IMG/VR virus record: IMGVR_UViG_3300027708_000016
Length of the DNA stretch: 64,000 bases
Strand: one strand, 5' to 3'
From: a virus
Lineage: Duplodnaviria; Caudoviricetes
The translations under genes and the position numbers were made by a program. This document shows positions 6,171-22,551 of this stretch, one piece after another. Each line of letters opens with the position of its first letter. Position 1 is the first letter of the stretch. The notes under the pieces are model-generated. The model was not told the DNA's origin and made no database searches. It saw nothing but the letters and a program-made list of their open reading frames with translations.

Positions 6171-6859
6171 AACTTTATACCGTTTTTACAGAGTCACATT
6201 ATGAAATGTTCAAAGACTATTTTATTAAATCTTTTCCCTTTGACACGAATTTAGAATTAGTAATTAAATTCAAACCACAGGTTTGTGCATCATCAGAGTT
6301 CCAAAGTGAAGGGTGGAGAGATACTATGAAATATAAAGTTCAATGTTTCATTGATGCTGCATATGAAACAAAAGATGGCGAATGTTTTATGTTTTCAGAC
6401 CCAGATATACAATTTTTTAAACCATTCCATGATGATGTTGTTAAAGAACTAGGTGATTTTGATGCAGCATTCCAAAATGATTATGGTGGCGGTGTTAATA
6501 CGGGATTTTTTATAATGAGATCCACCCCAAAAACTCGTGCATTTTTAAAAACCGTTCAAGGAAATCTTGAAAAATTTCCAGAAGAACAAGTTTGTTTTAA
6601 TTATATAATCAATAACTTTGACAAATTGCCAAAAGTTGCATATAAATGGAAGATGCTACCAAGAGAATATTGGACTTATGGTGAAAAAGCAATACAGATG
6701 GGTGTTAATGGACAACCTTTTAGCACATGGAGTGGAGAAGGAGATTTTGATATTCCTGAGAACATAATAATTCATCATGCTAATTGGGCAACACCATTCA
6801 AAAACAAAATAAAAATTCTTGATGTCGTAAAGGAAAAATACAATGCTAGAAACATTTAA
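6167..6859 (+). CDS. Nucleotide-diphospho-sugar transferase (GT77-like)
   Basis: FMFSDPDIQFF (DxD), FQND, VNTGFFIMR, EQVCFN, IHHANW, K-x-K tail. Confidence 0.72.
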   Translation: MKLYTVFTESHYEMFKDYFIKSFPFDTNLELVIKFKPQVCASSEFQSEGWRDTMKYKVQCFIDAAYETKDGECFMFSDPDIQFFKPFHDDVVKELGDFDAAFQNDYGGGVNTGFFIMRSTPKTRAFLKTVQGNLEKFPEEQVCFNYIINNFDKLPKVAYKWKMLPREYWTYGEKAIQMGVNGQPFSTWSGEGDFDIPENIIIHHANWATPFKNKIKILDVVKEKYNARNI

Positions 6860-7724
6860 AAAATACTGCATCAGGGCAATATACCCACCTTACCCACCTT
6901 ATCATCAAGGTGATTATTTGGAACAATATTTTTTAAAATTTTATTTAAAAAATATAGAAGAATTTAAAAAGCTAGAAAGACAATTTATTCCAGTTTGTTG
7001 GACTGATCTTTATTTAAAAGCTTTACACATAATAAATGATTTAGCGGTTGATTTGTCAAGATTGGATAAAGGTAAAAAATACTTTACCGTATCTCAACAT
7101 GATGATGCACCAGCAGTGCAGTTATTACCACCAGATACGATTAATTTCTCCGCTGGTGGCAATCAACCCAATACCATACCAATTCCATTAATATGTAGCG
7201 CAATACCAAACCCACCAAACCAAAAAAAAGATATATTTTGTAGTTTTGTTGGTAGCGTAACATCACCATCTACAACCTTTGGCGTATTAGCACATGATAT
7301 AAGAATAAAAATGCTCAAAACATTAAAGGATAACCCCGAATATCTTTTAAAACCAAGAAACTGGTCAGAAGATATTAAAAAAGAAAGACAGGATATGTTT
7401 ATAGATATTACTGCTAGAAGTAAATTTACGCTTTGTCCAAGAGGATATGGTGCAACTAGCTATAGAATGTACGAAGCAATGCAGTTGGGTTCTGTTCCAG
7501 TTTACATATACAACGATTTTCCCTTTATACCTTACGCAGACAAGATTAACTGGAACGAAATAGCAGTTTTGATAAACCAAAATGATATGGATAATTTAGA
7601 TGCTATATTAAAATCAATTTCCGATGATCAATACAATCATATGGTTAATAAAATTAAAGAGATATATCCAAAATACTTTACACTTGAGGCAACATGTAAT
7701 AATGTTTTAGAACATTTAAAATGA
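6843..7724 (+). CDS. Exostosin-like glycosyltransferase (GT47)
   Basis: IFCSFVGS, SKFTLCPRGYG, SYRMYEAMQLGSVPVYI, PYADKINW. Confidence 0.85.
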   Translation: MLETFKKYCIRAIYPPYPPYHQGDYLEQYFLKFYLKNIEEFKKLERQFIPVCWTDLYLKALHIINDLAVDLSRLDKGKKYFTVSQHDDAPAVQLLPPDTINFSAGGNQPNTIPIPLICSAIPNPPNQKKDIFCSFVGSVTSPSTTFGVLAHDIRIKMLKTLKDNPEYLLKPRNWSEDIKKERQDMFIDITARSKFTLCPRGYGATSYRMYEAMQLGSVPVYIYNDFPFIPYADKINWNEIAVLINQNDMDNLDAILKSISDDQYNHMVNKIKEIYPKYFTLEATCNNVLEHLK

Positions 7725-8482
7725 AAAAAATATTATTTGTAATTGCAAGATATAATGATAATAGGCAGCAAATATTTGATGAAATTATCTCTCCTAGAAA
7801 CAAAGCTTATTGTGATAAGCACGGATTTAAATATATTGTAATTGGTAATTCCGCACCTTTGTTTTTATATAGGCACAATCCCACATGGTGGAAATTTTCT
7901 ATTGTAAAAGATCTTATTGATCAAGGAAAACTAGAAAATGGTGATATCCTTGCTCATATCGATGCTGATATGTATTTTGTTAATGATTCGGTTTCAATTG
8001 AAACACCAAAATCTTTTTCATATGCAATAGATTCTGGTAATACCCATTGCATGGGTTGGTACAGCATAAAAGTTAATGATTGGTCAAAAAAATTAATCAA
8101 TAATATTCTTTCACAAGAAAGATTTAATAAATTACACAATAATGTCACAATACATGACAGATTTAAAACATATTCTAGTTTTTGGAATGAATTTAGAGAG
8201 CAAGCAAGTTGGTATAGTTTAGCAGGAATTAAAAGACATTCCGATAAACCGTTTTGGGAATATCCCAACAATGGTTTTCATAGTGAAATGAATGAAGATG
8301 TAGTCTATTCAATTGATGAATTAAATGAAAATGTTCAAATATTTGATACGGGATTTAATGTAACCGAATGGCAAGGCGAAAGTGGTTGCCAGTTTAATAT
8401 TAATAAAGTTTCAGTCGATAATGTTGTAATTAGACATTTTGCTGGTGGTCAAGATTGGAATAGTGTTAAAAATTGGTTATAA
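7721..8482 (+). CDS. Putative glycosyltransferase (GT34/MNN10-like)
   Basis: NKAYCDKHGFKY, WWKFSIV, LAHIDADMYF (DxD), EQASW, IRHFAG. Confidence 0.65.
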   Translation: MKKILFVIARYNDNRQQIFDEIISPRNKAYCDKHGFKYIVIGNSAPLFLYRHNPTWWKFSIVKDLIDQGKLENGDILAHIDADMYFVNDSVSIETPKSFSYAIDSGNTHCMGWYSIKVNDWSKKLINNILSQERFNKLHNNVTIHDRFKTYSSFWNEFREQASWYSLAGIKRHSDKPFWEYPNNGFHSEMNEDVVYSIDELNENVQIFDTGFNVTEWQGESGCQFNINKVSVDNVVIRHFAGGQDWNSVKNWL

Positions 8483-9175
8483 ACCTTTAGATTTTAAAAA
8501 TGGTACAATATAATTGTTATATGTATTATTTGACATTGGGTAATATTCAAAGCAATGAAATTTAAGCATTGTTACTGATGAATTAAGATTAAATGAAAAA
8601 TTATATTTTTCAGAAATTCTTCTTGACCATTCGATATCTTCAGATTGCCCCCAAGTCAATTCCTCATTAAGAGGAATTTCTTTCATAATTTCTTTTTTAG
8701 CAACCCAATATGAACCATTTATATACATCCACTTAGAACATCTATTTTCAAAATAAGGTAATAAATGCTCATGATTAGGTAAACTGTCTTTTGGTAACTC
8801 TTTTGATGAATGCCACAACCAATCTCTATATCTTTGTCCGTTATTTAATATAACATTACTACATACTTTAAAATCATTACCAAATTTTAAATAACCTTCA
8901 TACCAATTATTATCAAAAACATGATAATCATGCATATAAACAATATTATTATATTTTGCATTTTCTGTTATTATATTTTTTTTTCTAGTAGTCCAATTTT
9001 GTTTTATAGATTCATCAAATTCAATAGTTTTAACAAAATTTTCATCTTTAAAATTAGATTTACCAACAATTATAACTTCAAAATTTGGTATTTTTAATTT
9101 TTTAACCGAATCAATAATTGTAGGAATGTATTGATTTGTATGCTCGGTTGTAGTAATTCCAAAAGTAAAATCCAT
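8477..9175 (-). CDS. GT2-like glycosyltransferase
   Basis: FTFGITT, EVIIVG, TRKKNII, IVYMHDY, WGQSEDIEWS. Confidence 0.65.
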   Translation of the reverse strand: MDFTFGITTTEHTNQYIPTIIDSVKKLKIPNFEVIIVGKSNFKDENFVKTIEFDESIKQNWTTRKKNIITENAKYNNIVYMHDYHVFDNNWYEGYLKFGNDFKVCSNVILNNGQRYRDWLWHSSKELPKDSLPNHEHLLPYFENRCSKWMYINGSYWVAKKEIMKEIPLNEELTWGQSEDIEWSRRISEKYNFSFNLNSSVTMLKFHCFEYYPMSNNTYNNYIVPFLKSKGL

Positions 9176-9183
9176 AAATTAAT

Positions 9184-9927
9184 TTATATTAGAATCCAAT
9201 TTTTTAAATCCAAAGGTCTTAAATCATGATCATCTGGTTTAGGATTTGGTAAATAGGGCCATTTATTATCGCTTATTGGAAAATATATTTTATCTGCATT
9301 TGATATATATGCTGCAAACCATGAAAAAGTTGATTTTGATATACAGATTTTTTTTGCATTTTTAAGATAAATAAAATCTGACAAAGAATCTAATGATCTT
9401 ATATTACATCCAAGACTACTAAAGTCTTTTAAATAATCGCTATAAGGCTCATCAGTAACAATAGTGCATCGATTTGGCTTTTCCATTAATATAGCTTTTA
9501 AATACAAATTTTTATCAGTTATACTTCCACCACCAGCAAATACATAATCTGTTAAACGTATATGTATTACTAATTCATCATCTAATGGTTTTTCATATTG
9601 ATTTTCGTTTTCAATTTGCAAATAATTTATTACATTCTGTCTTCCTATTTGTTTGAAACATTCATATTTATGTATCATAAAATCAATACACCAACCATTT
9701 TTTGAATTTTTAACATTTTCAAAGAATTTTTCTCTATTATTATTGTAAATTTCACTTGCTGATTTAATATTATCGTGTACTATACCATCTTTTATTTCAT
9801 AGGTGTTTAAAAACCCTTGTATTTTTTCAGGTATAAACTTCATACCAGTTAATTTATGACAATGCATAGCCGCTACGAAATAATGTAGTCTATTACCCAT
9901 TCTACCATCGGATCTTATTGTTATCAT
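9184..9927 (-). CDS. Alpha-1,2-fucosyltransferase-like (GT11)
   Basis: GRMGNRL, VIHIRLTDY (HxRxxD), DF..L..A, SKSTFSWFAAY. Confidence 0.8.
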   Translation of the reverse strand: MITIRSDGRMGNRLHYFVAAMHCHKLTGMKFIPEKIQGFLNTYEIKDGIVHDNIKSASEIYNNNREKFFENVKNSKNGWCIDFMIHKYECFKQIGRQNVINYLQIENENQYEKPLDDELVIHIRLTDYVFAGGGSITDKNLYLKAILMEKPNRCTIVTDEPYSDYLKDFSSLGCNIRSLDSLSDFIYLKNAKKICISKSTFSWFAAYISNADKIYFPISDNKWPYLPNPKPDDHDLRPLDLKNWILI

Positions 9928-9972
9928 TTTATTAAATAGTATTAAAATTTATAATGTAACATCAATTATATT

Positions 9973-10671
9973 TTAAACCCATACTCTAAAAGATAATCTT
10001 CTATTTCTAAAATTTAAAAAATCACTTGGTTCAATAAATTCTATATTTCCTGCGATATGATTAAGCATATGTGCATCAAATTGCTCATTGTTTACGGAGT
10101 TTTCGCAAAAATGTTTAATTTGATCATCAGATAAATCTTTTAATTTTAAAAAATTATTATAAGAAGTAATAAAAAAATGGCTACTTGTTTCTGTTCTATT
10201 AAACTGTTTGTCTCCTATATGGAAACATGGTGATACGTTGGCATTTTCATTAAAAAATTTCTCAGCATCTTTAATTCTTACAAAATTATCATGTCTAGAT
10301 CTAATGATATAATCATATTTTTTATTGTTTTCTTTTAGATATTTAGCAATATAAATCAAATTGTATGCAAAAAAAGGAAATCCATCATCACGACATTGAT
10401 GATATTGACTCATATCTTTCTGTTCCAAAAAAATTGGAATATCAACAACATCTTTTATTTGTTCATTTAAAAGGTTGATATCATAATCATAAAGATAATT
10501 TGCGCCTTCGTTTACTTTATGATTGCTATAGGTTCCTTTTTTGGGATACCAAGTTAAAAAAATAACTTCGACATCATGAGTCGGAAAGCAATCCTTTAAT
10601 GCTTGAATATTGGTTTTAATATCATCTAAACACTCTCTAATTGCGCCTACAAAAATCAATCCTAATTTCAT
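9973..10671 (-). CDS. Hypothetical glycan-island protein; paralog of 13053..13778
   Basis: Shared motifs KLGLIFVGAIR / VIFLTW / YDYIIRSRHD. Confidence 0.5.
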   Translation of the reverse strand: MKLGLIFVGAIRECLDDIKTNIQALKDCFPTHDVEVIFLTWYPKKGTYSNHKVNEGANYLYDYDINLLNEQIKDVVDIPIFLEQKDMSQYHQCRDDGFPFFAYNLIYIAKYLKENNKKYDYIIRSRHDNFVRIKDAEKFFNENANVSPCFHIGDKQFNRTETSSHFFITSYNNFLKLKDLSDDQIKHFCENSVNNEQFDAHMLNHIAGNIEFIEPSDFLNFRNRRLSFRVWV

Positions 10672-10677
10672 TGATAA

Positions 10678-10684
10678 TATTTAT
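10678..10684 (-). promoter_or_regulatory. T4-like late promoter (ATAAATA) for the inverted 3-gene block
   Basis: Minus strand reads GATAAATA-ttatca-ATG(10671). Confidence 0.5.
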
Positions 10685-10722
10685 CACATGTTGATTTTTT
10701 TCAAGTATTGATATTTATTGTA

Positions 10723-11472
10723 ATGGAAAGTGATATTAACATATTGATACCAATGGCAGGATTAGGCAGCAGATTTGCACATACCCATCCCAACCAATTA
10801 AAACCACTAATTGATGTTTGTGGGGTGGCAATGATTAAAAGAGTAATTGAAAATTTAAATCAAAGCCAAAACGCAAATTTTATATTTGTGATACCTAATA
10901 TTTTGAAAAATAACAAGGATTTTTTTAATATATTAAATGAATCAAACATAAAATACAAAATATTAGTAACAGAAACCCTTACGGAAGGACCCGCTTGCAC
11001 GGCTTTATTAGCAAAAGATTTTATAAACAACAACACGCCATTAATAATAACTAATTGTGATCAATACATTGCAGATTTCAGTTTAAATGACCTATTAACT
11101 TTTTCAAAAATAAACAATGCACATGGAGTTGTTGGTGTATTCCATTCTAATTCGAATAAAAATAGTTATATTAAACTAGGAAATGATTTAAGAATACAGG
11201 AAATTAGAGAAAAAATTGTCATTAGTAATATTGCAACTAATGGTTTGCATTTTTGGTCTAAAGGTGTTTATTTTGTTGAGTCGGCAGAAAAAATGATTTC
11301 TAAAAATGAAAAATATAATAATGAATATTATATAGCACCTTCTTATAATAATATGATAACAGATAACAAAAATATTTTACCATACTATTATAATTTACAT
11401 TTTCCAATCGGAACGCCCGACGATTTAAACATTTTTGTAAATGAAGTATTTAAAACTATAAAACACAAATGA
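10723..11472 (+). CDS. Sugar-phosphate nucleotidyltransferase (NTP_transferase / RmlA-GlmU-like fold)
   Basis: NILIPMAGLGSRF, KPLIDV, TEGPACTA, LIITNCDQ, EIREK, EYYIAPSYN, PIGTPDDL; ATG at 10723 preferred over TTG at 10708. Confidence 0.85.
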   Translation: MESDINILIPMAGLGSRFAHTHPNQLKPLIDVCGVAMIKRVIENLNQSQNANFIFVIPNILKNNKDFFNILNESNIKYKILVTETLTEGPACTALLAKDFINNNTPLIITNCDQYIADFSLNDLLTFSKINNAHGVVGVFHSNSNKNSYIKLGNDLRIQEIREKIVISNIATNGLHFWSKGVYFVESAEKMISKNEKYNNEYYIAPSYNNMITDNKNILPYYYNLHFPIGTPDDLNIFVNEVFKTIKHK

Positions 11473-12356
11473 AAAAATTAAAAATAAACTTTGTAGACTT
11501 TTGGCCCAACCTATTTAAAGATGATAATTACTTCTATAATCTTTTAAAAACAAAATATGATGTTGAAATAGATGAAGAAAACCCTGATATATTATTTTTT
11601 TCGGTTGATTACAATAACGAAAGAAACAGGGATAGATATAAAAACTGTTTAAAAATCTTTTATACGGGTGAAAACGTTGAACCAAATTGGAATGAATGCG
11701 ATTTAGCTTATACTTTCAGACATTCAAATGATCCAAGGGAATATCGTTTGCCTTTATGGGCATTGCATTTGAATTGGTTTAATAGACCCTATATCGCAGA
11801 AAGAGATCATGCTTATTTACACGATTTAGAGTCATTTTTAGATAAAACCAAAATTAAAAAACTAAACAAAACTGGTTTTTGTTCATTTGTTGCATCACAA
11901 CCCAAAGGAAAAAGAGTTGATTTTGTTCCAAAGCTTTTTAATTACAAACCAGTACATTGCGCAGGACGTTTATATAATAACATAGGTGATGTTTTAGTTT
12001 GTAGAGGTGACCAAATAGAAAAAATAAACTTTTTAAAAAAATTTAAATTTAATATCGCAATGGAAAACACATCTTGTCAAGGTTATTGCACAGAAAAAAT
12101 AATACATTCAATGTTTGGAATGAATATTCCCATATATTGGGGATCAACATCTGTTGAAAGCGATTTTAATCCAGAATCCTTTATTAATTGTCATAATTTT
12201 TCTTCTGATGAAGAAATTATAGAAAAAATTAAAGAATTGGACATGGATGTAGAAAAATATGTTGATATGTTAAAAAAACCTTGGTTTAAAGATGGTAAAA
12301 TTCCAGATTCCGTTCAACCTGATAATGTTATATCTTTAATATCTAATAAAATATAA
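11469..12356 (+). CDS. Alpha-1,3-fucosyltransferase-like (GT10)
   Basis: KINFVDFW, PDILFFS, FYTGEN, FCSFVAS, KFNIAMEN...GYCTEKI, IPIYWG, FNPESFIN. Confidence 0.88.
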   Translation: MKKLKINFVDFWPNLFKDDNYFYNLLKTKYDVEIDEENPDILFFSVDYNNERNRDRYKNCLKIFYTGENVEPNWNECDLAYTFRHSNDPREYRLPLWALHLNWFNRPYIAERDHAYLHDLESFLDKTKIKKLNKTGFCSFVASQPKGKRVDFVPKLFNYKPVHCAGRLYNNIGDVLVCRGDQIEKINFLKKFKFNIAMENTSCQGYCTEKIIHSMFGMNIPIYWGSTSVESDFNPESFINCHNFSSDEEIIEKIKELDMDVEKYVDMLKKPWFKDGKIPDSVQPDNVISLISNKI

Positions 12357-13051
12357 TGAAACCTGATAAAATTTATATAATTCATTATACTAAATTAAAA
12401 GACAGGTATTCAAATTTAATTTCAATTTTAGAAAAATCTAAAATACCTTTTGAATTTATAACACAATATGATAAAGAAGATTTAAAAGAAGATATATTAA
12501 ATAAATTTTATCTACCAAATCCCGAAAAATTTACAAACAAAATTAAACCTTTATGGGATTGTAATATAAATACATTCAGAGTTTTAAGTTCTTCAGAATT
12601 GTCTTGCGCAATTAAACAACTAACTGCTATTAAAAAATTATCTCAAGAGTGTAAAAATTTTGGCATGATCTTAGAAGATGACATTATGTTCGATACGAAT
12701 TTTAATTTACTTTTTAAAAAGTATATCCAAGAAACACCAAACGATTGGGATGCTATTTTTTTAGGTGAAGGTTGCGGTTTTGAATTTCAAAAGTATAAAT
12801 TATCAACAAGTATAAGAAAGAGTGAAAATTCTTATCTAGTCAATAATCCCGCTACAAACTGCGCCGAAGCATATTTATTAAAACCTGATATTGCATCTAA
12901 AATATATGAATCATCATTACCGTTTCAATTAGCTTTTGATTGGGAACTTGCATATCAGTTATATAAATTGAAAGCTAAAACATATTGGTGGTTCCCATCA
13001 ATTGCAAAACAAGGTTCCAGAACAGGACAATATCAATCATCCTTAAGATAA
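12356..13051 (+). CDS. Glycosyltransferase family 25-like
   Basis: KIYIIHY...DR, SCAIKQ, MILEDDI, WDAIFLG, AEAYLL; C-terminus KQGSRTGQYQSS matches RQGSETGKYKSS of 4912..5580. Confidence 0.75.
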   Translation: MKPDKIYIIHYTKLKDRYSNLISILEKSKIPFEFITQYDKEDLKEDILNKFYLPNPEKFTNKIKPLWDCNINTFRVLSSSELSCAIKQLTAIKKLSQECKNFGMILEDDIMFDTNFNLLFKKYIQETPNDWDAIFLGEGCGFEFQKYKLSTSIRKSENSYLVNNPATNCAEAYLLKPDIASKIYESSLPFQLAFDWELAYQLYKLKAKTYWWFPSIAKQGSRTGQYQSSLR

Positions 13052-13052
13052 A

Positions 13053-13778
13053 ATGAGAATAGCAATTTGTTTATCAGGGTTAACTAGATCCATGTGGTAT
13101 TGTTTTCCTGTATTAAAAGAATATATAATAAACGAATTAAATGCAGATGTTTTCTTACATACTTGGGAAATAGATAACGGTGGGCAAACTCCATGCGATG
13201 ATGCAGCAAAATCATGTTCCATCGAAGAAAAAAAAGAATATATTGAAAACAGAATAAAACCAAAAAGATACGTAATAGAAAATTACAACGATTTTTTACA
13301 AAAATACCCAAGCCAAACTCATCCATCAACTGCTCCCATGTATTATTCAATCATGAAGTCTAATGCCCTAAAAAAAGAATATGAATTGGAAAATAATTTT
13401 AAATATGATGTTGTTTTTAGGATAAGAATGGACGTAATGTTTGATACTACGATTGATAAAGAAGAATTAAAAAACGTCATAGAGCAAAAAAAACTATATA
13501 TAGGTTACCATAGTGTAGATAAAATTGAATCTCAACCAAAAATAAGTGATTTTTTTGCTTTTTCAACTTCTGAAAACATGGATTATTATTCGGATGCATT
13601 CAAATTATGGGAAAATAATAGATATTTAAATGGAGAAGATGTATTGAATACACATATATTAAATGCAAATTTAAAATATAAATGGACTAACACGAAAATG
13701 AAATTAACCTACCGTTGGCAAACGTGTAGAGCATATTTCGCCTATGCATATAGACAAAATTTTGCATATCAGGATTGA
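13053..13778 (+). CDS. Hypothetical glycan-island protein; paralog of 9973..10671
   Basis: RIAICLSGLTR, ADVFLHTW, MYYSI, YDVVFRIRMD, ISDFFAFS. Confidence 0.55.
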   Translation: MRIAICLSGLTRSMWYCFPVLKEYIINELNADVFLHTWEIDNGGQTPCDDAAKSCSIEEKKEYIENRIKPKRYVIENYNDFLQKYPSQTHPSTAPMYYSIMKSNALKKEYELENNFKYDVVFRIRMDVMFDTTIDKEELKNVIEQKKLYIGYHSVDKIESQPKISDFFAFSTSENMDYYSDAFKLWENNRYLNGEDVLNTHILNANLKYKWTNTKMKLTYRWQTCRAYFAYAYRQNFAYQD

Positions 13779-13802
13779 TTTTTTAAAATTTTATTATATA
13801 AT
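13775..13802 (+). promoter_or_regulatory. sigma70-like promoter
   Basis: TTGATT(13775)-16 nt-TATAAT(13797-13802), ATG at 13811. Confidence 0.55.
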
Positions 13803-13810
13803 TCTTTTAC

Positions 13811-14773
13811 ATGAAAAAAATTGCTTTTTATTTGCCGCATATTGATATACAAGGAACAGGGGTGTCAGTTTTAGATTATTGTAAATTTAATCAAGAAATT
13901 CTTGGTAATAAATCATTTATGATTCATGATTTAAATCATCCAGCCAATCATGAACTAGCCATTGAAAAATTTAAAAATAATAATATAGAAATAATATCTT
14001 TGAAGGGTAACGAAGATACGAATGAATTGGAAAGAAAATTGGACGAACTCAAAGTTGATGCAGTTTACATTCAAAAAACAGGAAGAAAGGATGACGGCAG
14101 ATTTGCTAAAAATAAACCTTCATTCATACATGTAATAGGAACCCAAAATGATCCTCACGGGACAGTCTATGCTTATGCTAGTGAATGGTTAAATCAGCAT
14201 TGCACAGGGGGAACTTATCCAGTTGTTCCTTATATGGTTCATCTACCTGAACACCATGACAATTTTAGAGATAAACTAAAACTACCCGAAAATGCAATAG
14301 TTTTTGGTAGAACAGGTGGAATATATTCTTGGAACATGCCTTGGGTTAGTCAGACTATAGAAAAAGCACTCTCGTTAAGAGATGATATATACTTTTTATT
14401 CGTACAGACCCCTCAATTTATAAAACACGAAAGAGTTATATATACAAGTCCATTTTCTGACCTTTATATAAAAAGAAAATTCATTAACACATGTGATGCA
14501 ATGATTCACGCAAGAGCAGAAGGCGAATCATTTGGTATGGCTTGTGCAGAATTTTCTTATAGTAATAAACCAGTTATAACATATAGTAATTCACCAGAAA
14601 GAAATCATATTTACGTTTTAAAGGATAAAGGTTTATATTATGATTCTCCTCAAACACTGTTAGATATACTTTTAAAATTTGAAATTCAAGATAAAGATTG
14701 GAATGCCTATCGTGAATTTACGCCAGAATCAGTAATTAACCAATTCAAAAAGGTTTTTATTGATAAAATATGA
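13811..14773 (+). CDS. GT-B fold glycosyltransferase (GT4-like)
   Basis: GTGVSVLDY, VFGRTGG, CDAMIHARAEGESFGMACAEF, KPVIT. Confidence 0.78.
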   Translation: MKKIAFYLPHIDIQGTGVSVLDYCKFNQEILGNKSFMIHDLNHPANHELAIEKFKNNNIEIISLKGNEDTNELERKLDELKVDAVYIQKTGRKDDGRFAKNKPSFIHVIGTQNDPHGTVYAYASEWLNQHCTGGTYPVVPYMVHLPEHHDNFRDKLKLPENAIVFGRTGGIYSWNMPWVSQTIEKALSLRDDIYFLFVQTPQFIKHERVIYTSPFSDLYIKRKFINTCDAMIHARAEGESFGMACAEFSYSNKPVITYSNSPERNHIYVLKDKGLYYDSPQTLLDILLKFEIQDKDWNAYREFTPESVINQFKKVFIDKI

Positions 14774-15090
14774 AAATTCTAAATATAGAAGATTTTATAG
14801 GTGGATGGTTCATTGGAGATTTTGAACCATCGGTTTTAAAAACCAAAGATTTTGAAGTTTGTTTTAAAAAACATGTTAAGGATGAAATTTGGCCCAAACA
14901 TTATCATCGAATAGCAACCGAAATTAATTATTTGATTAAAGGTGAAATGATAATACAGGGTAAACTACTAAAAACGGGTAATATTTTTATCTTAGAACCA
15001 AATGAATGGGCTAATCCAGTATTTTTACAAGATTGTGAACTTATAGTAGTAAAAACACCTTCTATAAAAGGTGATAAATATGAAAATTAA
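14770..15090 (+). CDS. Small cupin-fold protein
   Basis: GWFIGDFEP, WPKHYHRIATEINYLIKGEM (H-x-H...E cupin motif), FILEPNE. Confidence 0.8.
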   Translation: MKILNIEDFIGGWFIGDFEPSVLKTKDFEVCFKKHVKDEIWPKHYHRIATEINYLIKGEMIIQGKLLKTGNIFILEPNEWANPVFLQDCELIVVKTPSIKGDKYEN

Positions 15091-15118
15091 TTGACTTTTT
15101 TACTATTTATTATATAAT
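15091..15118 (+). promoter_or_regulatory. sigma70-like promoter of the RLP gene
   Basis: TTGACT(15091)-16 nt-TATAAT(15113-15118), ATG at 15128. Confidence 0.6.
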
Positions 15119-15127
15119 ATTATTATT

Positions 15128-16342
15128 ATGCTTAAATACGACATTTTTAAACCAGAATACAAATTAGACTCTTCCTTCTTTGCTAATTATTTTATTGTAA
15201 CATACTTAATTGGTTCAAAAACCGATTTAAAAGATGCCGCATGGAATCTAGCTATCGGGCAATCAATTGGAAATCCAAGTAAGCGTTCCGAATTTGAGAG
15301 CCAAGATTTGATTGACAATCATTGTGCTATTATTTTACATGATGAAAAATCCTTAGAGAATCTTAAAGAAGGTATTGTTAAGATTGCTTTTGCTGAAGCA
15401 AATATTAACTTTAAAACGGACGGAGTATCCCAATTGCTAGTCCAAATAATGGGAGGTCAATGTGACATTGATATTTTTGAAAAGTGTGTTATTAAAGATA
15501 TAAAATTAACTCCAAATATGGAGAACTGTTTGCAGGGACCTAAAATTGGTCTAAAAGAAATGAGAGAATATTGTGGTGTATCACAGGAAAAGCCTTTATT
15601 TGGTGGGATTGTGAAACCAAAAGTTGGTCTTTCGCCACAAAAAAATCTTGATTTGGTAAAAAAACTCATTGATGGCGGCTGTAACTTCATAAAAGAAGAT
15701 GAAATTCTTTCAGATCCCGATCATTGTAGAATTGAAGATCGTGTTCCCCCTGTAATGGATTATATTAAAAGCACTAATGCAAAAGTTTATTACGCAGTTT
15801 CAATCCATTCCGATCCTGCACACATTTTAAATCGTGTTAAGCAAGTTTATGAATTGGGTGGAAATGCTGTTCATGTAAATTTCCATTGTGGATTAGGTGT
15901 TTATAAGTCTATTAGAGAACTTGATTTACCAATTCTAGTTCACTTCCAGAAAAGCGGTGATAAAATTTTAAATTGTTATGATCATAAATTTGCAATTGAT
16001 CAAGATGTAATCTTTAAACTTGTTGGGCAAAGTGGCTGTTCGACGCTTCATGCTGGTATGATCGGTGGATACATGGATAATGAAACACAGGCGGTAAAGA
16101 AGACTATTTCCATGTTGAATGATATAAATTGCGTCCCAGCTTTAAGTTGTGGAATGCACCCAGGTTTAATTGATTATATTTTAGATGTGGTTGGACATAG
16201 CAACTGGATGGCAAATGTCGGCGGTGCATTAACATCACATCCAAGTGGTACTTTGGCAGGTACAAAGGCTATGAGACAAGCAATCGATAAGAATTACGGG
16301 GATGAATATCATCAAGCCATTGAAAAATGGGGTAAGAAATGA
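15128..16342 (+). CDS. RuBisCO-like protein (form IV RLP, RuBisCO large-subunit superfamily)
   Basis: GGIVKPKVGLS (K175/K177), NFIKEDEIL (K201/D203/E204), LVHFQK (H294), LHAG (H327), PALSCGMHPG, NVGGALTSHPSGTLAGTKAMRQA; 404 aa. Confidence 0.93.
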   Translation: MLKYDIFKPEYKLDSSFFANYFIVTYLIGSKTDLKDAAWNLAIGQSIGNPSKRSEFESQDLIDNHCAIILHDEKSLENLKEGIVKIAFAEANINFKTDGVSQLLVQIMGGQCDIDIFEKCVIKDIKLTPNMENCLQGPKIGLKEMREYCGVSQEKPLFGGIVKPKVGLSPQKNLDLVKKLIDGGCNFIKEDEILSDPDHCRIEDRVPPVMDYIKSTNAKVYYAVSIHSDPAHILNRVKQVYELGGNAVHVNFHCGLGVYKSIRELDLPILVHFQKSGDKILNCYDHKFAIDQDVIFKLVGQSGCSTLHAGMIGGYMDNETQAVKKTISMLNDINCVPALSCGMHPGLIDYILDVVGHSNWMANVGGALTSHPSGTLAGTKAMRQAIDKNYGDEYHQAIEKWGKK

Positions 16343-16755
16343 TAGTAATTTCTCATAGAGGGAATACTACTGGCCCAGTTAAACAAACCGAAAATCGACC
16401 CCAAACAATTCAACCTTTATTGGATAAAAATATCCACGTGGAAATTGATGTTTGGTTAATAGGTGACAGTTTTTTCTTGGGTCATGATGACCCTTTATAT
16501 AAAACCGATATAAAATTTTTATTACAAAAAAATCTCTGGTGTCATGCAAAAAACTTAAAATCATTAGAAGAAATGTTAAAACACGATATTAATTGTTTTT
16601 GGCATGAAAACGATAAACACACTTTAACATCTAATGGTTATATTTGGACTTATCTTAATCAAAAAACATGTGATAAATCCATAATAGTTGATTTATCAAA
16701 AAACTGGAAAGAAAAAAATTATAATTGCTATGCCATTTGTGTTGATTACTTGTAA
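16339..16755 (+). CDS. Short GDPD/PLC-like phosphodiesterase-fold protein
   Basis: MIVISHRGN, EN, HVEIDVW, FLGHD, LWCHAKN, ICVDY. Confidence 0.72.
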   Translation: MIVISHRGNTTGPVKQTENRPQTIQPLLDKNIHVEIDVWLIGDSFFLGHDDPLYKTDIKFLLQKNLWCHAKNLKSLEEMLKHDINCFWHENDKHTLTSNGYIWTYLNQKTCDKSIIVDLSKNWKEKNYNCYAICVDYL

Positions 16756-16776: not shown

Positions 16777-18585
16777 ATGAAAAAAGTTCAATTTAATTCT
16801 GTAAAAATACAAAATTTTCTTTCCGTTGGTAAAGATCCATTAACAATTGATTTTCAAAACGGCATTAATCTCATCACTGGAGAGAATAAAGACAAGGGTG
16901 GCAAGAATGGAATAGGGAAAAGCTCCATTCTTGAAGCCATTTACTGGTGTTTATTTGGTAATACCATTCGTGATATCAAAAACGATAAGATAATTCACAA
17001 TCTTAGCAAGAAAGATTGCAAGGTTTCATTAAACTTTGAGGTTGTTACCGAAAAACACGTAACTCCATACACTATAGAAAGATCTTTAGAACCAAGTAAG
17101 GTTACTATTACTGCACATAATCAACAAAGAGACATTGATATGACTCTTTCTACCATGCCAGAGACCAATTCCTTCATTAAAGAATTACTTGGGGCAACCG
17201 AAGAAGTGTTCCAGAATGCTGTTATCATGTCTGCGAACAATACAGTGCCGTTTATGGCTCAAAAGAAGACCGATAAAAGAAAATTCATCGAAGGAATTCT
17301 TAATCTTAACATCTTTAGTGACATGTTGCTAAAGGCAAGAGGAGATTATAATGATTTTAAAAAACAAAATGACTCGTTGAGTAGTAATTTTATTACGCTT
17401 CAAAGAAATTTAAGCACTTTTGAAGATCAGAAAGCAAATGCAGAAACAAAAAAACAAGAAAAAATAGATGCATTTAATTCTCGCATTAGAGATAATGAAA
17501 AAATCATAGAACAATTAAATAACACAACCCTTCCTAGTTTAAATGAAGTTAATGACGGCATACAAAAGCTAGAAGAAAAACGCACTGCACTAAAAAGTTG
17601 CATTAAAGCTTTTAATATAACAAGGTCAGATCTTATAAAAAAAAGTTCAGATCTTTCCGCTGAGATAAGACAATTAGAAAAAGAAAAACAAAAGATAATC
17701 GACAAAGGTGGAACATGTCCAACATGTAATAGAGACTATTGTGTTGAAGACCTTGAAGCTGTTAAGCAAAGATTAAAAGATATTGCTACCAATATATCAA
17801 ATCTTGCTACCGAATCATTCACCATTAATAGTGAAAAGATTGATTGGGACGATAAGATCGAAGAAGCAGAAGATGGAGTTGAAAAAATCAATGGTAAAAT
17901 CAGAATTTTGGATCAATCAAAGTCAGATATCAAAATTAACAATCAAAAAATAACTAATTGTGAAAGTAATATTAAAGATTGTTTGAAATGGATCGAAGAT
18001 ACTAAGATAGATGATCCATCAATTGATTTAAATGTTCAAAATACCAAAAAAGAAATTGAAAACACTCAAATAGAACTAACAAAAGTTAAAAAAGAAATGG
18101 CGATAGTAGAAGCTGCCAAATTTATTGTCTCCGAGGAGGGTGTTAAAACGTATATTGTTAAGAAAATGCTTACGTTACTTAACAAGAAGCTTAATTACTA
18201 CCTCAAAGAACTTGATACTCCATGTAAATGTGAGTTCAATGATATGTTTGAAGAAACTATTATCAACGAAACTGGTAAAGAATGTTCATATTTCAATTTT
18301 AGTGGGGGAGAAAGAAAAAGAATTGATGTTGCTGTGTTGTTTATGTTTCAAGATCTCTTGAGAAGCCAAACTGGAACCTCATATTCGTTAAACATCTATG
18401 ATGAAATGATTGATTCTGCCCTTGATCAGCAAGGAACTGATAAAATTATTGGTTTACTTAAAGAAAAGGTTACAAAATACGATGAGTCTGTTTACATAGT
18501 CAGTCATAAAGCATCAGATATGGCAAGAATTGATAATGTTTTATTGTTAGAAAAAGAAAATGGTGTTACAAAAATAGTTAGTTGA
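16777..18585 (+). CDS. gp46: Recombination endonuclease ATPase subunit, Rad50/SbcC-like (gp46)
   Basis: Walker A GKNGIGKSS, coiled coil with CPTC zinc hook, signature FSGGERKRI, Walker B IYDEMIDSALD, VSH. Confidence 0.93.
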   Translation: MKKVQFNSVKIQNFLSVGKDPLTIDFQNGINLITGENKDKGGKNGIGKSSILEAIYWCLFGNTIRDIKNDKIIHNLSKKDCKVSLNFEVVTEKHVTPYTIERSLEPSKVTITAHNQQRDIDMTLSTMPETNSFIKELLGATEEVFQNAVIMSANNTVPFMAQKKTDKRKFIEGILNLNIFSDMLLKARGDYNDFKKQNDSLSSNFITLQRNLSTFEDQKANAETKKQEKIDAFNSRIRDNEKIIEQLNNTTLPSLNEVNDGIQKLEEKRTALKSCIKAFNITRSDLIKKSSDLSAEIRQLEKEKQKIIDKGGTCPTCNRDYCVEDLEAVKQRLKDIATNISNLATESFTINSEKIDWDDKIEEAEDGVEKINGKIRILDQSKSDIKINNQKITNCESNIKDCLKWIEDTKIDDPSIDLNVQNTKKEIENTQIELTKVKKEMAIVEAAKFIVSEEGVKTYIVKKMLTLLNKKLNYYLKELDTPCKCEFNDMFEETIINETGKECSYFNFSGGERKRIDVAVLFMFQDLLRSQTGTSYSLNIYDEMIDSALDQQGTDKIIGLLKEKVTKYDESVYIVSHKASDMARIDNVLLLEKENGVTKIVS

Positions 18586-18614: not shown

Positions 18615-19943
18615 ATGGCATTAAAGTTAAAGCAACAACCTAAACCGCAGATTGCAACACAAGAATTGGCAAATGATAAGATAACATATCAATACAATCC
18701 AGTTTTTACAGGCATTCCAAATGCTCCTCATGGAATGCCGCAAGGGATGCCAGTTTATTCCCATGTGCAAATGAATCCTATCAAGTTTCCGTCACCCGCG
18801 CCGCTTGAAATGCCAGAAAGTAACTTACCGAGAGCATTAAACTATTATGCGGACTATGGTGGTTGTGGTTTTTGGAGAATGATTTGGCCCGAATTCATGT
18901 TGAACCAATACCAAAAGGCTTGTATCTCTGGATTAACCTGTATGGTAATGGATATTAGATTTTATCAGGGATTAAAAGCTGTTAGAATGCAAAGACAAGC
19001 TACCCCAATGCAAAGAGACTTCATCAAGGAGCTTAAAAAAGCAAGTGCTCAGATGAATTTTAAATTAATTTATGAAGTTGATGATATCGTGTTCAAGGAT
19101 GACATTCCAGATTATAACCGATGCAAAGATGCATTCTGTGATCAAAATATTATAGACAGTATTTTGGATATCATGAGTATGATGGATGAAATTACCGTTA
19201 CATGTCCATACATGAAGCAATATTACCAAGAAAAGACGGGTAATAAGAGAATTACAGTTATTCCCAACTATCCACCAAAATTTTGGCTTGATAGATTTTA
19301 TGATAAACAAAAAATTGAAAGACTTTACGATCAAAATAAAAAAAGACCTCGTATTCTGTATTCTGGATCTGGTACTCATGTTGATATTCTTAATAGAACA
19401 GGACTTAAGGATGACTTTAAGCATGTTACTGATGCAATTATCAAGGCTCGTAAGAAATTTAAGTTTGTGTGGAAGGGATGTTTTCCTTTAGCACTCAAAC
19501 CATACATCGATAATGGCGATATGGAGTTTATTGATTGGTCACCTTTGCCAGATTACCCCCAAGGTCTTGTTGATACCAATTGTAATGCTGTTTTTGCACC
19601 ATTGATTGATAATGTGTTCAATAAATCAAAAAGTAATATTAAAATGGTTGAGGCAGGAGGATTAGGACTACCTGGCACATATCAAGACATGATTACCTAT
19701 GAAGATTCAGAGTTAAAATTTAAAACTGGTGATGATTTAATCCAACAGTTAGAGTATATCACTTCCGATTTTGATCGATACATGGATCTTTCTGGTAAAG
19801 CAAGAGCATTTACCGATAAACTTTGGTTAGATGATCATATAAATGAATACGAAGCTCTTTATTCAACTGCATGGGGGTCTCCAGAAAGAAAGAAGCTTGC
19901 TCCTAAACTCATCGAACTCAACCCAGATCAAGATAGTGCTTGA
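18615..19943 (+). CDS. Phage GT-B-type glycosyltransferase adjacent to DNA polymerase
   Basis: ADYGGCGFWRM, IYEVDD, ITVTCP, VIPNY, ILYSGS, APLIDNVFNKSKSNIKMVEAG. Confidence 0.68.
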   Translation: MALKLKQQPKPQIATQELANDKITYQYNPVFTGIPNAPHGMPQGMPVYSHVQMNPIKFPSPAPLEMPESNLPRALNYYADYGGCGFWRMIWPEFMLNQYQKACISGLTCMVMDIRFYQGLKAVRMQRQATPMQRDFIKELKKASAQMNFKLIYEVDDIVFKDDIPDYNRCKDAFCDQNIIDSILDIMSMMDEITVTCPYMKQYYQEKTGNKRITVIPNYPPKFWLDRFYDKQKIERLYDQNKKRPRILYSGSGTHVDILNRTGLKDDFKHVTDAIIKARKKFKFVWKGCFPLALKPYIDNGDMEFIDWSPLPDYPQGLVDTNCNAVFAPLIDNVFNKSKSNIKMVEAGGLGLPGTYQDMITYEDSELKFKTGDDLIQQLEYITSDFDRYMDLSGKARAFTDKLWLDDHINEYEALYSTAWGSPERKKLAPKLIELNPDQDSA

Positions 19944-19974: not shown

Positions 19975-22551
19975 ATGGCTTATAGAAATGTTTATTACGA
20001 CAATAAAAATGAAGTAATACATCTTTTTACTTGGGATAAGGATGGTAAAAGGACAAAAGTGCTATGTTCATATGAACCATATCTTTATATTGAGTCTCAA
20101 AATGGTTGTGATGGCAAATCTATTTTTAATTCTGCACTAAAAAAGGTTAAATTCAATAATCAAAGAGCAAGAAACAAGTTTGTAGAGGAAACCCCGATTG
20201 AAAGACTTTTTCATAATCTTGGAACCGATCAACAGTTCCTTCTTGATAATTTTAAGAACGATGTAGACAAAGAAGATTATGGTAAACAACCATTAAAGAT
20301 CTTTTACATTGATATTGAGACATATTCTGATGGTACTGGATTCTCCAAAGCATCCGATGCTAACGATCCAATCAATTTAATTACAATTTATGATTCTCTC
20401 AGTGAAATATATTACACTTTTGGATGCAATAACTATGCAACACAAGAAGAAAATGTAAAATACATTAAATGTTATTCAGAAAAAGATCTTCTTACACAAT
20501 TTATTAGGTTTTGGAAAAAAGATTATCCTGATATTGTCACTGGGTGGAACATTGATAACTATGATATTCCATATATCATCAATAGAATTACAAAAATTTT
20601 TAATGATGAAGATAAAGCAAAGGAATTGTCACCAGTTGGTAAGTTACAATTCAGGGAAAAGGTTGCAGTTAACAAATTAGGTCAGGCAATTGATCGTTGG
20701 TACATTCATGGTGTTAGTATTTTAGATTACATGGAGGTATATCAGACCTTTTCAATGGGTGATCGTGAGAGTTTCAGCTTGAATTATATTGGTGAATATG
20801 AACTAGACGAAGGAAAGGTTGCAGTTGGTAGTTATTCGCTCTCAAGACTAGCAGATGAAGATTGGATGAAGTTTGTTGACTATAATATTCAAGACGTTCG
20901 CATTTTAATTAAGTTGGAAGAGAAGTTGAAGTATCTAAAGTTGATTCGCAACCTATCATACAGGGGATTTGTTCCCTTTACAAAGGCACTGGCAAAGGTT
21001 TCAGTCATTACGGGTGCGGTTGCACACCAAGCATTAAGAGATGGTTATATAATTCCCACATTTAAAGATGAAAGAATTAAAGTAAAGTTTGCAGGAGGGT
21101 ATGTTTACCAACCCGTGCCAGGTTTATACGATGATCTAGTAACGTATGATGCAAACAGTCTTTATCCCAATACTATTATTACTTTAAATATCTCACCAGA
21201 GACTAAAATTGGTAAAATTACAAATTTTGAAGATGATAAATTTGAAGTAACGTTTTCAAATCATAAAACAATGACGTTTACGGTGGAAAACTTTAAGAAA
21301 TTTGTTTCTGATCAACAACTTTCTATTACCAAAGCAAATATTCTTTATACTCAGAAAGTTAAAGGTGTAGTTCCCAAGCTTATCGACAAGCTTTACAACG
21401 AAAGAATTACAGCAAAGACAAAAATGATGGATGCTGAGAAGAAATTAGCCAAAACAAAAGATCAAAATCAAATAAAAATCTTAGAAGAAGAGGTTAATGA
21501 TAACTATACATTACAGAATGTGTATAAAACTCTTCTAAATTCTATTTATGGTGTATTTTCTAACATTTATTCGCCACTTTTTGACATTGAACATGCCGAA
21601 AGTGTTACTTTAACAGGTCAAAATGTTGTTAAAACGGGTGCAAAGATAGTACATGAGTATGCAGTAAGCAAAGGGTTTGAAGGAGATCTTCATGATATCT
21701 GTGTTTATTCCGATACGGACAGCGTTTATTTTTGTTTTGCTAAATTATTTGCTAAAAATAACATTATTTTAGCAAATAAAGACGGTGAAATAACATCAGA
21801 AGCATCAGAAATGATCAAAGATATTGGAAAACATCTTAATGAAAAGATTAATGAATGGGCAAAACAAGAATTGAAGACGATTGATCCAAGATATTTCTTT
21901 AAAAGGGAAAAAATTTGTGACGTTGCTCTTTTACAAGCAAAAAAATATTATATTCTTCATATTTTAGATAATGAAGGTATTTCAACTAATGAATTTCTAT
22001 ATACTGGAATTGAAGTTGCCACTTCAAAAATCTCAAAGGAGATTAAGGTATTAATTAAATCAATTGTGGAGTCTGCTATTCTATCAAAAGACAGAAAGAA
22101 AGCCAATCAACTATTTCAAAATGGATATGAAGATTTTTGTAGTTTTCCCGTCGATGCGATTGCAATTAGAAAGAGAGTAAACAAATTAAAGGAGTATCAA
22201 GACAAAGTTAAAGATGAACAAGTTGCAAAGGGTACGCAGGGTCACACCAAAGCTGCAATTTACTTTAATATACTACTCAAGAAATTAAATCTTACCAACA
22301 AGTATCATCCAATTCAAACTGGAACTAAATTAAAGGTATTTTATTGCAAGAAGAATAAATTTGGTTATGACGTTTTTGCATTTACCGATGAATTACCAGT
22401 TGAAATTCAAAAATATATTAAACCAGATTACAAAATGATGTTTGAAAAAACTGTCATGCCAGTTGTTACTAAGATTTTTAACATCATTGGGTGGCCCACG
22501 CCTGAGATCGGTTGCGAAGAACATACTGATTTAATTGCATTATTATCATGA
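19975..22551 (+). CDS. gp43: Family B DNA polymerase (T4 gp43-like)
   Basis: Exo motifs YIDIET, GWNIDNYDIPY, DYNIQDV; Pol motifs YDANSLYP, KTLLNSIYG, YSDTDS, KKYY. Confidence 0.95.
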   Translation: MAYRNVYYDNKNEVIHLFTWDKDGKRTKVLCSYEPYLYIESQNGCDGKSIFNSALKKVKFNNQRARNKFVEETPIERLFHNLGTDQQFLLDNFKNDVDKEDYGKQPLKIFYIDIETYSDGTGFSKASDANDPINLITIYDSLSEIYYTFGCNNYATQEENVKYIKCYSEKDLLTQFIRFWKKDYPDIVTGWNIDNYDIPYIINRITKIFNDEDKAKELSPVGKLQFREKVAVNKLGQAIDRWYIHGVSILDYMEVYQTFSMGDRESFSLNYIGEYELDEGKVAVGSYSLSRLADEDWMKFVDYNIQDVRILIKLEEKLKYLKLIRNLSYRGFVPFTKALAKVSVITGAVAHQALRDGYIIPTFKDERIKVKFAGGYVYQPVPGLYDDLVTYDANSLYPNTIITLNISPETKIGKITNFEDDKFEVTFSNHKTMTFTVENFKKFVSDQQLSITKANILYTQKVKGVVPKLIDKLYNERITAKTKMMDAEKKLAKTKDQNQIKILEEEVNDNYTLQNVYKTLLNSIYGVFSNIYSPLFDIEHAESVTLTGQNVVKTGAKIVHEYAVSKGFEGDLHDICVYSDTDSVYFCFAKLFAKNNIILANKDGEITSEASEMIKDIGKHLNEKINEWAKQELKTIDPRYFFKREKICDVALLQAKKYYILHILDNEGISTNEFLYTGIEVATSKISKEIKVLIKSIVESAILSKDRKKANQLFQNGYEDFCSFPVDAIAIRKRVNKLKEYQDKVKDEQVAKGTQGHTKAAIYFNILLKKLNLTNKYHPIQTGTKLKVFYCKKNKFGYDVFAFTDELPVEIQKYIKPDYKMMFEKTVMPVVTKIFNIIGWPTPEIGCEEHTDLIALLS

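Follow-up and report, generated by a model that had tools for sequence, protein, structure and literature searches.

We found that four genes of a T4-like myophage, carried on a stretch of 64,000 nucleotides (IMG/VR record IMGVR_UViG_3300027708_000016; this whole stretch is called the window below), belong to families that recur side by side in viral, bacterial and archaeal DNA. All four are encoded on the plus strand: a nucleotidyltransferase (NTP-transferase, 10708/10723-11472), a cupin of 106 amino acids (aa; 14770-15090), a RuBisCO-like protein (RLP) of 404 aa (15128-16342) and a small protein of 138 aa (16339-16755) similar to glycerophosphodiester phosphodiesterases (GDPDs) and called mini-GDPD here. 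The RLP, this NTP-transferase subfamily and the mini-GDPD, in about two thirds of cases with the cupin, travel together, mostly translationally coupled, in glycosyltransferase-rich islands. The cassette is real, conserved and mobile; most likely its product is a glycan precursor activated by a nucleotide, and the RLP is an enolising enzyme that tailors it. As for the window, we consider it reasonably probable that the four genes represent, in this phage, a cassette that is widespread, moves horizontally and supplies a surface glycan with a nucleotide-activated unit, sugar-like or polyol-phosphate-like.

The preliminary description of this DNA had grouped the four proteins into a donor-synthesis module, a proposal that depends on whether the families co-occur elsewhere. 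All the open reading frames (ORFs) that it named were recovered by ORF calling, and each of the four family hidden Markov models (HMMs) matched one ORF in the 64-kb window, all four ORFs lying within 6 kb. RLP loci were collected with their flanks from IMG/VR (89 loci out of the 381 contigs carrying RLP relatives), from species-representative genomes (38 loci) and from several metagenome contigs, and the flanking ORFs were searched with HMMs built iteratively from the four proteins of the window; L-numbers denote individual loci. The RLP homologues span 34-76% identity. The 123 RLP loci formed 90 clusters at 90% identity, and 75 of these were flanked by 3 kb or more on either side. Within 5 kb of the RLP, a gene of the same NTP-transferase family was present in 71 of these 75 loci, the mini-GDPD in 63 and the cupin in 52, and all three together were found in 44. 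The RuBisCO homologues L062 and L063, which group with bona fide form I RbcL outside the RLP clade, have no cassette. Since the cassette is present in the RLP clade and missing from L062 and L063, the co-occurrence is clade-specific and far beyond chance. These counts, together with the coupling and the fusions described below, uphold the grouping of the four families as one functional module; the proposal has to be amended for the cupin, which is missing from about one third of the cassettes and is dispensable.

Most often the genes run NTP-cupin-RLP-(O-methyltransferase)-GDPD, all on the same strand, and overlap by a few nucleotides or nearly abut. SAR11 genomes and similar viral contigs show the order GDPD-NTP-RLP, and another SAR11 group GDPD-NTP-RLP-NTP; Beckwithbacteria and Patescibacteria have GDPD-cupin-RLP, and in DPANN archaea RLP-NTP is accompanied by GDPD and NTP on the opposite strand. 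In the window, the 4-nt overlap between the RLP and the mini-GDPD was confirmed; judging by its ATGA, the mini-GDPD is translationally coupled to the RLP. Domain fusions connect the families further: NTP-cupin in six loci, NTP-GDPD in one metagenome-assembled genome (MAG) of Micrarchaeota, with a PF03009 match, and GDPD with the DUF7796-like protein in L068. No fusion involving the RLP was found, though the NTP-GDPD and GDPD-DUF7796 fusions occur. A HAD domain of the beta-PGM type is fused to an NTP-transferase paralogue (450-470 aa) in L030, L070, L017, L132 and others, and in L132 and cyanophage B23 this HAD-NTP protein is the immediate neighbour of the mini-GDPD. No HAD-NTP fusion is present in the window, whose one HAD-like ORF (4133-4915) is weak. 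The cupin is fused to a sugar C-methyltransferase (Methyltransf_23 plus Methyltransf_14) in L009 (2017-3480), and in L131 a sugar C-methyltransferase is encoded two genes upstream of the cassette (6013-7245). Nothing points specifically to the branched or acid sugar that had been suggested as the product; in some relatives, given the cupin-linked C-methyltransferases, the product may be C-methylated, that is, branched.

The RLP is a member of the RuBisCO superfamily, matching PF00016 (RuBisCO_large) at 1.6e-34 with 120 bits against a cut-off of 30.1. It stayed below the NCBIfam equivalog cut-offs for type III RuBisCO (141.6 bits vs. 497.45), MtnW (IV-YkrW; 98.7 vs. 513.6 and 119.7 vs. 409) and the 3-oxo-isoapionate-4-phosphate decarboxylase OiaX (117.1 vs. 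700). Its residues were mapped by alignment to form I RbcL, by HMMER to form III chains and by the family alignment A1. In RuBisCO numbering, K175, K177, K201, D203, E204, H292, H327, S379, G381, G403 and G404 are kept and R295 is conservatively replaced by K, while E60G, T65N, W66P, N123G, T173I, H294Q, H298D and K334Y are changed. Three independent alignments agree on the HFQK motif, in which H292 is kept, H294 has become Q and R295 has become K. Residues K163, K165, K189, D191 and E192 of the RLP, equivalent to Lys175, Lys177, Lys201, Asp203 and Glu204 of RuBisCO, are invariant across 30 homologues, and at the active-site positions readable in A1 the window residue is invariant or at least 90% conserved in the same set. 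The residues for carboxylation and cleavage that a bona fide RuBisCO would have, Glu60, Asn123, His294 and the Lys334 of loop 6, are not there. In the RuBisCO mechanism, E60, N123 and K334 serve CO2 addition, and H294 serves hydration and cleavage. The enolisation machinery and both phosphate (anion) pockets are retained, and the general-base Lys that the DK-MTP-1-P enolase has at the Asn123 position is absent, K98 of 2oek being aligned to Q111. Since the RLP keeps the Mg/carbamate site and the phosphate pockets and has lost E60, N123, H294 and K334, it is not a carboxylase; the prediction is an isomerase or epimerase that depends on Mg2+ and the carbamate and enolises a phosphoketose with two anionic groups.

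The longest ORF of the NTP-transferase begins at a TTG (10708), and the first ATG (10723) is residue 6. The protein matches PF00483 (2e-9, 37.8 bits against a cut-off of 21.2) and phrog_3980 (5e-53), and its N-terminal G-x-G-x-R loop is present as AGLGSRF at residues 17-23. The only sequence relative in the PDB is 4evw, whose function is unknown, and scores against the NCBIfam equivalogs RmlA, GlmU, GalU, IPCT and KdsB were all at or below 43 bits, with cut-offs of 175-600. By its PF00483 score and this loop, the protein is a sugar- or polyol-phosphate nucleotidyltransferase.

No match to Pfam (PF01050 included) or NCBIfam was obtained for the cupin, which matches phrog_24762 at 2e-35. An alignment of 57 sequences has H44, H46, E51 and G58 invariant, as in cupin motif 1, G(X)5HXH(X)3-4E(X)6G, and the profile of these homologues matches cupins in the PDB. 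The AlphaFold2 (AF2) model (pLDDT 97.7) has the double-stranded beta-helix fold, with 171 Foldseek matches at E<=1e-3. The closest structures are the mini-cupin phosphomannose isomerases of Thermococcus, 7zvy and 7zvm (105-115 aa; Z 12.9 and 12.6), the former superposing with an rmsd of 2.0 over 98 aligned aa. By alignment and model, 14770-15090 was verified as a single-domain metal cupin with an HxH...E site. Two other candidates were considered, FdtA-type NDP-sugar 3,4-ketoisomerase and the MTXu-5-P methylsulfurylase cupin of R. rubrum; neither is among the top structural matches.

The mini-GDPD likewise has no match in Pfam (PF03009 included) or NCBIfam, and matches phrog_34507 at 3e-23. 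Ten positions, H6, R7, E18, N19, E35, D37, H49, D50, H69 and K71, are invariant in an alignment of 62 sequences, and the profile finds the GDPDs 3i10 and 7e0v in the PDB at an E-value of 1e-5 over the HRG..EN..ExD..HD motifs. The AF2 model has a pLDDT of 97.2. Foldseek against the PDB gave weak E-values only; when the model was compared with 48,161 chains by VIA-align, the top 22 matches were all phosphodiesterases of the GDPD/phospholipase D (PLD) type (Z 7.2-9.5, about 131 of 138 residues aligned), the best being 1vd6 and 1o1z at Z 9.5. The homologous GDPD domain fused to the NTP-transferase in L043 reaches PF03009 with 30.5 bits against a cut-off of 23.6. On this combination of profile and model, 16339-16755 was verified as a miniature GDPD of the TIM-barrel type with its catalytic set intact. 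The family occurs almost only in viruses and in the cassettes described here.

The division of labour within the cassette is illuminated by five cyanophage loci that have no RLP. Their constant set is the NTP-transferase, the mini-GDPD and the DUF7796-like protein, sometimes with the cupin; the variable partners are an RpiB-NTP fusion, a class II aldolase closest to L-ribulose-5-phosphate 4-epimerase, an HddA-like kinase and small HAD-type phosphatases. The NTP-RpiB fusion, of 385 aa and annotated only as 'phosphatase', lies directly upstream of the cupin homologue in SynMITS9220M01 (L001, 6835-7992) and Bellamy (L002, 7835-8992). A tandem NTP-NTP protein of about 520 aa was also observed in Bellamy and S-SM2. 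RpiB or a class II aldolase was found in none of the 123 RLP loci. The DUF7796-like family accompanies the RLP in 36-48 loci and was present in all the examined cyanophage islands that lack the RLP; its structure neighbours in the Atlas are 'capsular biosynthesis proteins' of Pseudomonadota and Campylobacterota. Because the RLP-less islands keep NTP-transferase, mini-GDPD and DUF7796-like protein and carry RpiB or an aldolase instead, the RLP would be a precursor-tailoring step acting on a phosphoketose. We infer two layers, one for activation and transfer (NTP-transferase, mini-GDPD, DUF7796-like protein) and an exchangeable one for precursor tailoring (RLP with or without cupin, or a pentose-phosphate isomerase or epimerase). 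Since the mini-GDPD follows the NTP-transferase and the DUF7796-like protein even where the RLP is absent, it belongs with the activation and transfer end and not with the RLP chemistry. Its constant pairing with the NTP-transferase hints at a role in supplying the phosphate ester or at an action on the product once this is linked to the nucleotide or transferred, rather than at 'trimming' after the RLP as had been proposed.

In the pathway that we envisage, the RLP would use its carbamylated Lys/Mg2+ site to enolise a phosphorylated 2-ketose and then re-protonate it, with isomerisation or epimerisation as the net outcome and with neither CO2 addition nor C-C cleavage. Its substrate would be a pentulose phosphate or bisphosphate; a pentulose phosphate is weakly favoured because the RLP-less islands carry RpiB or an enzyme like ribulose-5-phosphate 4-epimerase and because both phosphate pockets are kept. 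The cupin would carry out an adjacent aldose/ketose or keto-isomer step. The NTP-transferase would couple the product phosphate to a nucleoside monophosphate (NMP), giving a donor for the transferases of the island, so that NTP-transferase, mini-GDPD and DUF7796-like protein would form the activation and transfer end and the RLP, with or without cupin, the precursor-tailoring end.

The 107 cassette-linked RLPs form one clade (SH-aLRT 99) that includes those of the window, of the IMG/VR contigs and of the Beckwithbacteria MAG L037; form I RbcL, the second RLP of Azospirillum, L062 and L063 fall outside. Viral and cellular RLPs are interleaved in the tree, and the nearest to the window are viral contigs, followed by Saccharimonadia. 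The cellular carriers comprise a complete Pelagibacter genome, many SAR11 single-cell genomes, Saccharimonadia, Beckwithbacteria and other Patescibacteria, Woese-, Nano-, Pace- and Micrarchaeota, a Verrucomicrobiae chromosome and the cultured Azospirillum oleiclasticum. A tblastn search of 50,697 isolated phage genomes gave no match to the RLP, and no cultured phage carries it; among isolated phages the cupin and the mini-GDPD occur only in cyanophages. Wherever Pfam annotation was available, the cassette had glycan-related neighbours: GT1, GT2, GT9, GT11, GT17, GT61, WavE, the initiating transferase Bac_transf, RmlC and DegT, and in addition UDP-GlcNAc 2-epimerase, SDR epimerases/dehydratases, a CMP-sugar synthetase-like gene, FkbM, CmcI and C-methyltransferases. 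In the Pelagibacter locus L030 (4686-5687, 9166-9936) the cassette is flanked by a PGDH-like D-2-hydroxyacid dehydrogenase, a GT9 heptosyltransferase and a CMP-sugar-synthetase-like cytidylyltransferase, and these flanking genes place the SAR11 cassette in the hypervariable region for lipopolysaccharide (LPS) or other glycans. Eight IMG/VR loci (L087, L093, L100, L104, L119, L122, L123 and L125) have the order GDPD-NTP-RLP and RLPs that cluster tightly with those of Pelagibacter L030-L032; such contigs are either host DNA deposited under a viral label or come from pelagiphages that have exchanged the cassette with SAR11. On the phage contig L130, a 411-aa protein with PARP regulatory and catalytic domains is encoded a few genes downstream of the cassette (12558-13793).

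In the window, the cassette lies in a glycan-building island of about 15 kb (1792-16755), inserted between the genes for a gp47/SbcD-like phosphoesterase (737-1795, Metallophos) and a gp46/SbcC-like ATPase (16777-18585; phrog_77, 1.6e-99), and the gp43 DNA polymerase follows at 19975-22551 (phrog_262, 3.7e-182). In T4-like phages, the genes for gp47 and gp46 are normally side by side. The island contains genes of the types GT25, FkbM methyltransferase, GT77-like, GT47/RXYLT1-like, GT10, GT25, DUF7796-like and GT1-like. Between the NTP-transferase and the cupin, Pfam identified, all on the plus strand, a GT10 fucosyltransferase-like protein (11469-12356; FucT_N/GT10), a GT25 (12356-13051), the DUF7796-like 'capsular polysaccharide biosynthesis' protein (13053-13778) and a weak GT1/GT-B (13811-14773). 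Together with the viral, bacterial and archaeal relatives, these Pfam assignments bear out the view that the NTP-transferase is accompanied by transferases upstream of the other genes and that the module sits in a glycan island; the four genes at 11469-14773 probably use the donor. A 4-nt overlap is present between the GT1-like and cupin ORFs as well. The 37-nt gap between cupin and RLP is filled by the best sigma-70-like promoter match of the region (15091-15118, plus strand; TTGACT-16-TATAAT, 11 of 12 positions), a consensus match in a region where such matches are not above expectation (58 vs. 48.9 in shuffled sequence); given its position, the RLP and the mini-GDPD may have an early-type transcription start of their own. 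The GT47/exostosin-like transferase (6843-7724) also matches the C-terminal domain of RXYLT1 (1.2e-11). RXYLT1 is an animal enzyme that xylosylates ribitol-phosphate, and the match is a faint hint that the island handles polyol-phosphate. Outside the island and within the run of replication genes, between gp46 and the DNA polymerase, a 442-aa protein (18615-19943) has a single match, to the phage 'glycosyltransferase' phrog_7162 (1e-19), and none in Pfam. The window has a G+C content of about 30% and is present in at least seven freshwater metagenome studies, and its polymerase is only about 30% identical to those of the nearest isolated phages, which are pelagiphages and cyanophages.

Several observations weigh against the reading of these genes as a donor-synthesis cassette. 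Hydrolysis of a phosphodiester, which is what GDPD-fold enzymes catalyse, has no obvious place in a simple route from sugar-phosphate to NDP-sugar. No reductase, kinase or mutase is universal among the cassettes, and the route from a central metabolite to the substrate of the NTP-transferase is incomplete. The predicted chemistry of the RLP is drawn from its sequence, from which the substrate cannot be read, and KdgF, Pac13, ectoine synthase and DddK, cupins of unrelated function, all come within 1 Z unit of the phosphomannose isomerase match of the cupin. The mutual exclusion of the RLP and RpiB or aldolase has only five RLP-less cyanophage loci behind it, and none of the RNA runs that were searched contains the stretch. 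Finally, the window's NTP-transferase gene is not adjacent to the other three, being 3.6 kb upstream of the cupin with four transferase genes in between. It is the orthologue, at 59-64% identity, of the NTP-transferase genes that abut cupin-RLP in the closest relatives (L003, L004, L007 and L008), and since this parallels the 72-75% identity of the RLPs in the same loci, it is the cassette's own gene, displaced.

Two readings keep the activation chemistry and assign the RLP differently. In a bolder one, the RLP would catalyse a biosynthetic reaction of a type new to the RuBisCO superfamily, rearranging a ketose (bis)phosphate or a nucleotide-linked ketose, and two NTP-transferase paralogues would join it, along with the mini-GDPD, whose target would be an intermediate with a cyclic or nucleotide phosphodiester. 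The outcome would be activated sugars of a new class (e.g. an NDP-ketose or a pentose that is rare or branched), in wide use in surface glycans of SAR11, the candidate phyla radiation (CPR) and DPANN and by phages that remodel these surfaces; we consider this rather doubtful. The other, which seems to us unlikely, is that NTP-transferase, mini-GDPD and DUF7796-like protein serve glycerophosphate or polyol-phosphate decoration: the GDPD would free glycerol-3-phosphate, the NTP-transferase would make a CDP-alcohol and the DUF7796-like protein would transfer it, the RLP and cupin being a co-located sugar-phosphate salvage pair. The occurrence of this trio in cyanophages without RLP fits such a scheme, and so do the intact catalytic motifs of the GDPD, the NTP-GDPD and GDPD-DUF7796 fusions as opposed to none with the RLP and, as a weak hint, the RXYLT1-like GT47 of the island. 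However, co-location alone hardly explains an RLP that is translationally coupled in most loci, across three domains and at 34-76% identity, and the NTP-cupin fusions connect the cupin side to the activation side.

Other explanations place the product elsewhere than in a glycan. The cassette might make a soluble small molecule: a metabolite linked to a nucleotide, a phosphodiester solute resembling di-inositol-phosphate, or a compound for signalling or anti-defence. A phosphodiesterase would suit phosphodiester metabolites, the N-terminus of the NTP-transferase bears a weak likeness to inositol-1-phosphate cytidylyltransferase (8e-8, NCBIfam) and an Inositol_P family gene adjoins the cassette in L005; even so, we hold this to be improbable, as the cassette lies among glycosyltransferases, in cells beside genes for an initiating phosphoglycosyl transferase, a heptosyltransferase and a CMP-sugar synthetase, and no CDP-alcohol phosphatidyltransferase was seen. 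The characterised RLPs, all of them salvage or catabolic enzymes, raise the question of whether the RLP takes part in the salvage of nucleosides, of S-adenosylmethionine (SAM) by-products or of pentose-bisphosphates, feeding central metabolism during infection. In the MTA-isoprenoid shunt of R. rubrum, the RLP is partnered by a cupin, and both phosphate pockets are kept here, as a ribulose-bisphosphate-like substrate needs. Genes for methionine salvage, AMP phosphorylase and R15P isomerase were, however, absent from every locus inspected, the MtnW and OiaX equivalog scores are far under their cut-offs and the enolase general base is missing, which makes a salvage role very improbable. The least probable of the explanations is that the island supplies a sugar for hypermodification of the phage DNA. 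Its location between gp47 and gp46, upstream of the DNA polymerase and with a further glycosyltransferase-like gene after gp46, would agree with this, but in SAR11, Patescibacteria and archaea the same cassette stands in LPS/capsule-type clusters of the chromosome, other phages carry it at unrelated sites, e.g. beside ribonucleotide reductase or baseplate genes, and the window showed no hydroxymethylase.

Phage RLPs belonging to this clade are not new. Jaffe, Castelle, Dupont and Banfield (2019, Mol Biol Evol, PMC6389311) described about 80 'Form IV-like' RLPs on Myoviridae-type phage contigs and in Beckwithbacteria, left their function open and did not discuss the neighbouring genes; theirs was the only paper on this clade that our literature searches for the function or gene context of phage RLPs turned up. 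The window RLP belongs to this phage/Beckwithbacteria clade as matched by carriers and description, the published sequences not being in our tree. Like the cassette clade, the Form IV-like RLPs occur on Myoviridae-type contigs of many environments and in Beckwithbacteria (here L037, 49% identity), and both are divergent, keep part of the catalytic residues and stand outside the canonical RLP clades. New with respect to that work are the cassette, its glycan context, the residue map and the wider range of hosts (SAR11, Saccharimonadia, Woese-, Nano- and Micrarchaeota, Verrucomicrobiae and Azospirillum). The further statement of the preliminary description, that no biosynthetic role is established for RLPs, agrees with the literature searched, which gives them roles only as enolase, isomerase, decarboxylase or oxygenase in salvage or catabolism. 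The cassette points to an undescribed biosynthetic job within the RuBisCO family; if the proposal is true, this would be the first biosynthetic role, and probably a new reaction, for the superfamily, in a clade of hundreds. SAR11, Patescibacteria and DPANN, which carry the cassette as do their phages, are among the most abundant and least cultivable aquatic microbes, so that the product is likely a common component of cell-surface glycans relevant to phage recognition.

Among known systems, the best-scoring solved relatives of the RLP are form III RuBisCOs, 8dht and the T. kodakarensis structures 3a13/1geh (A1 profile E-values of 6e-45 to 1e-40), which share with it the KPK and K-x-D-E motifs, H327, S379 and the GG loop, whereas E60, N123, H294 and K334 are all replaced in the RLP. 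The DK-MTP-1-P enolase MtnW/YkrW (2oek) and the 5-methylthioribulose-1-phosphate isomerase RLP of R. rubrum have the same fold, the same Mg site of carbamylated Lys, Asp and Glu and the same P1 phosphate loop, and like them the phage RLP is expected to enolise a 1-phospho-2-ketose without carboxylation. It differs from them in being only about 25% identical, in a distal pocket that is cationic (K275, H308) and not hydrophobic, and in having no methionine-salvage context. The mini-GDPD has in common with GDPDs (PF03009; 1vd6, 1o1z, UgpQ/GlpQ) the N-terminal motifs HR, EN, ExD and HD and the barrel topology, but its 138 aa, compared to about 220-250 aa, make it a stripped-down barrel. The pairing of NTP-transferase and cupin, fused in six loci, recalls the bifunctional GDP-mannose pyrophosphorylase/type II phosphomannose isomerase, and phosphomannose isomerases (7zvm/7zvy) are the best structural match to the cupin, yet at 21-23% identity. 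We know of no enzyme of the RuBisCO superfamily or with a GDPD fold in pathways of the heptose, CDP-ribitol or CDP-glucitol type. These donor pathways, which run from an isomerase through a kinase/phosphatase or a reductase to an NTP-transferase, follow the same logic as that proposed for the cassette, a central ketose phosphate being tailored and then nucleotide-activated, and the related cyanophage islands carry an HddA-like kinase, RpiB and HAD phosphatases.

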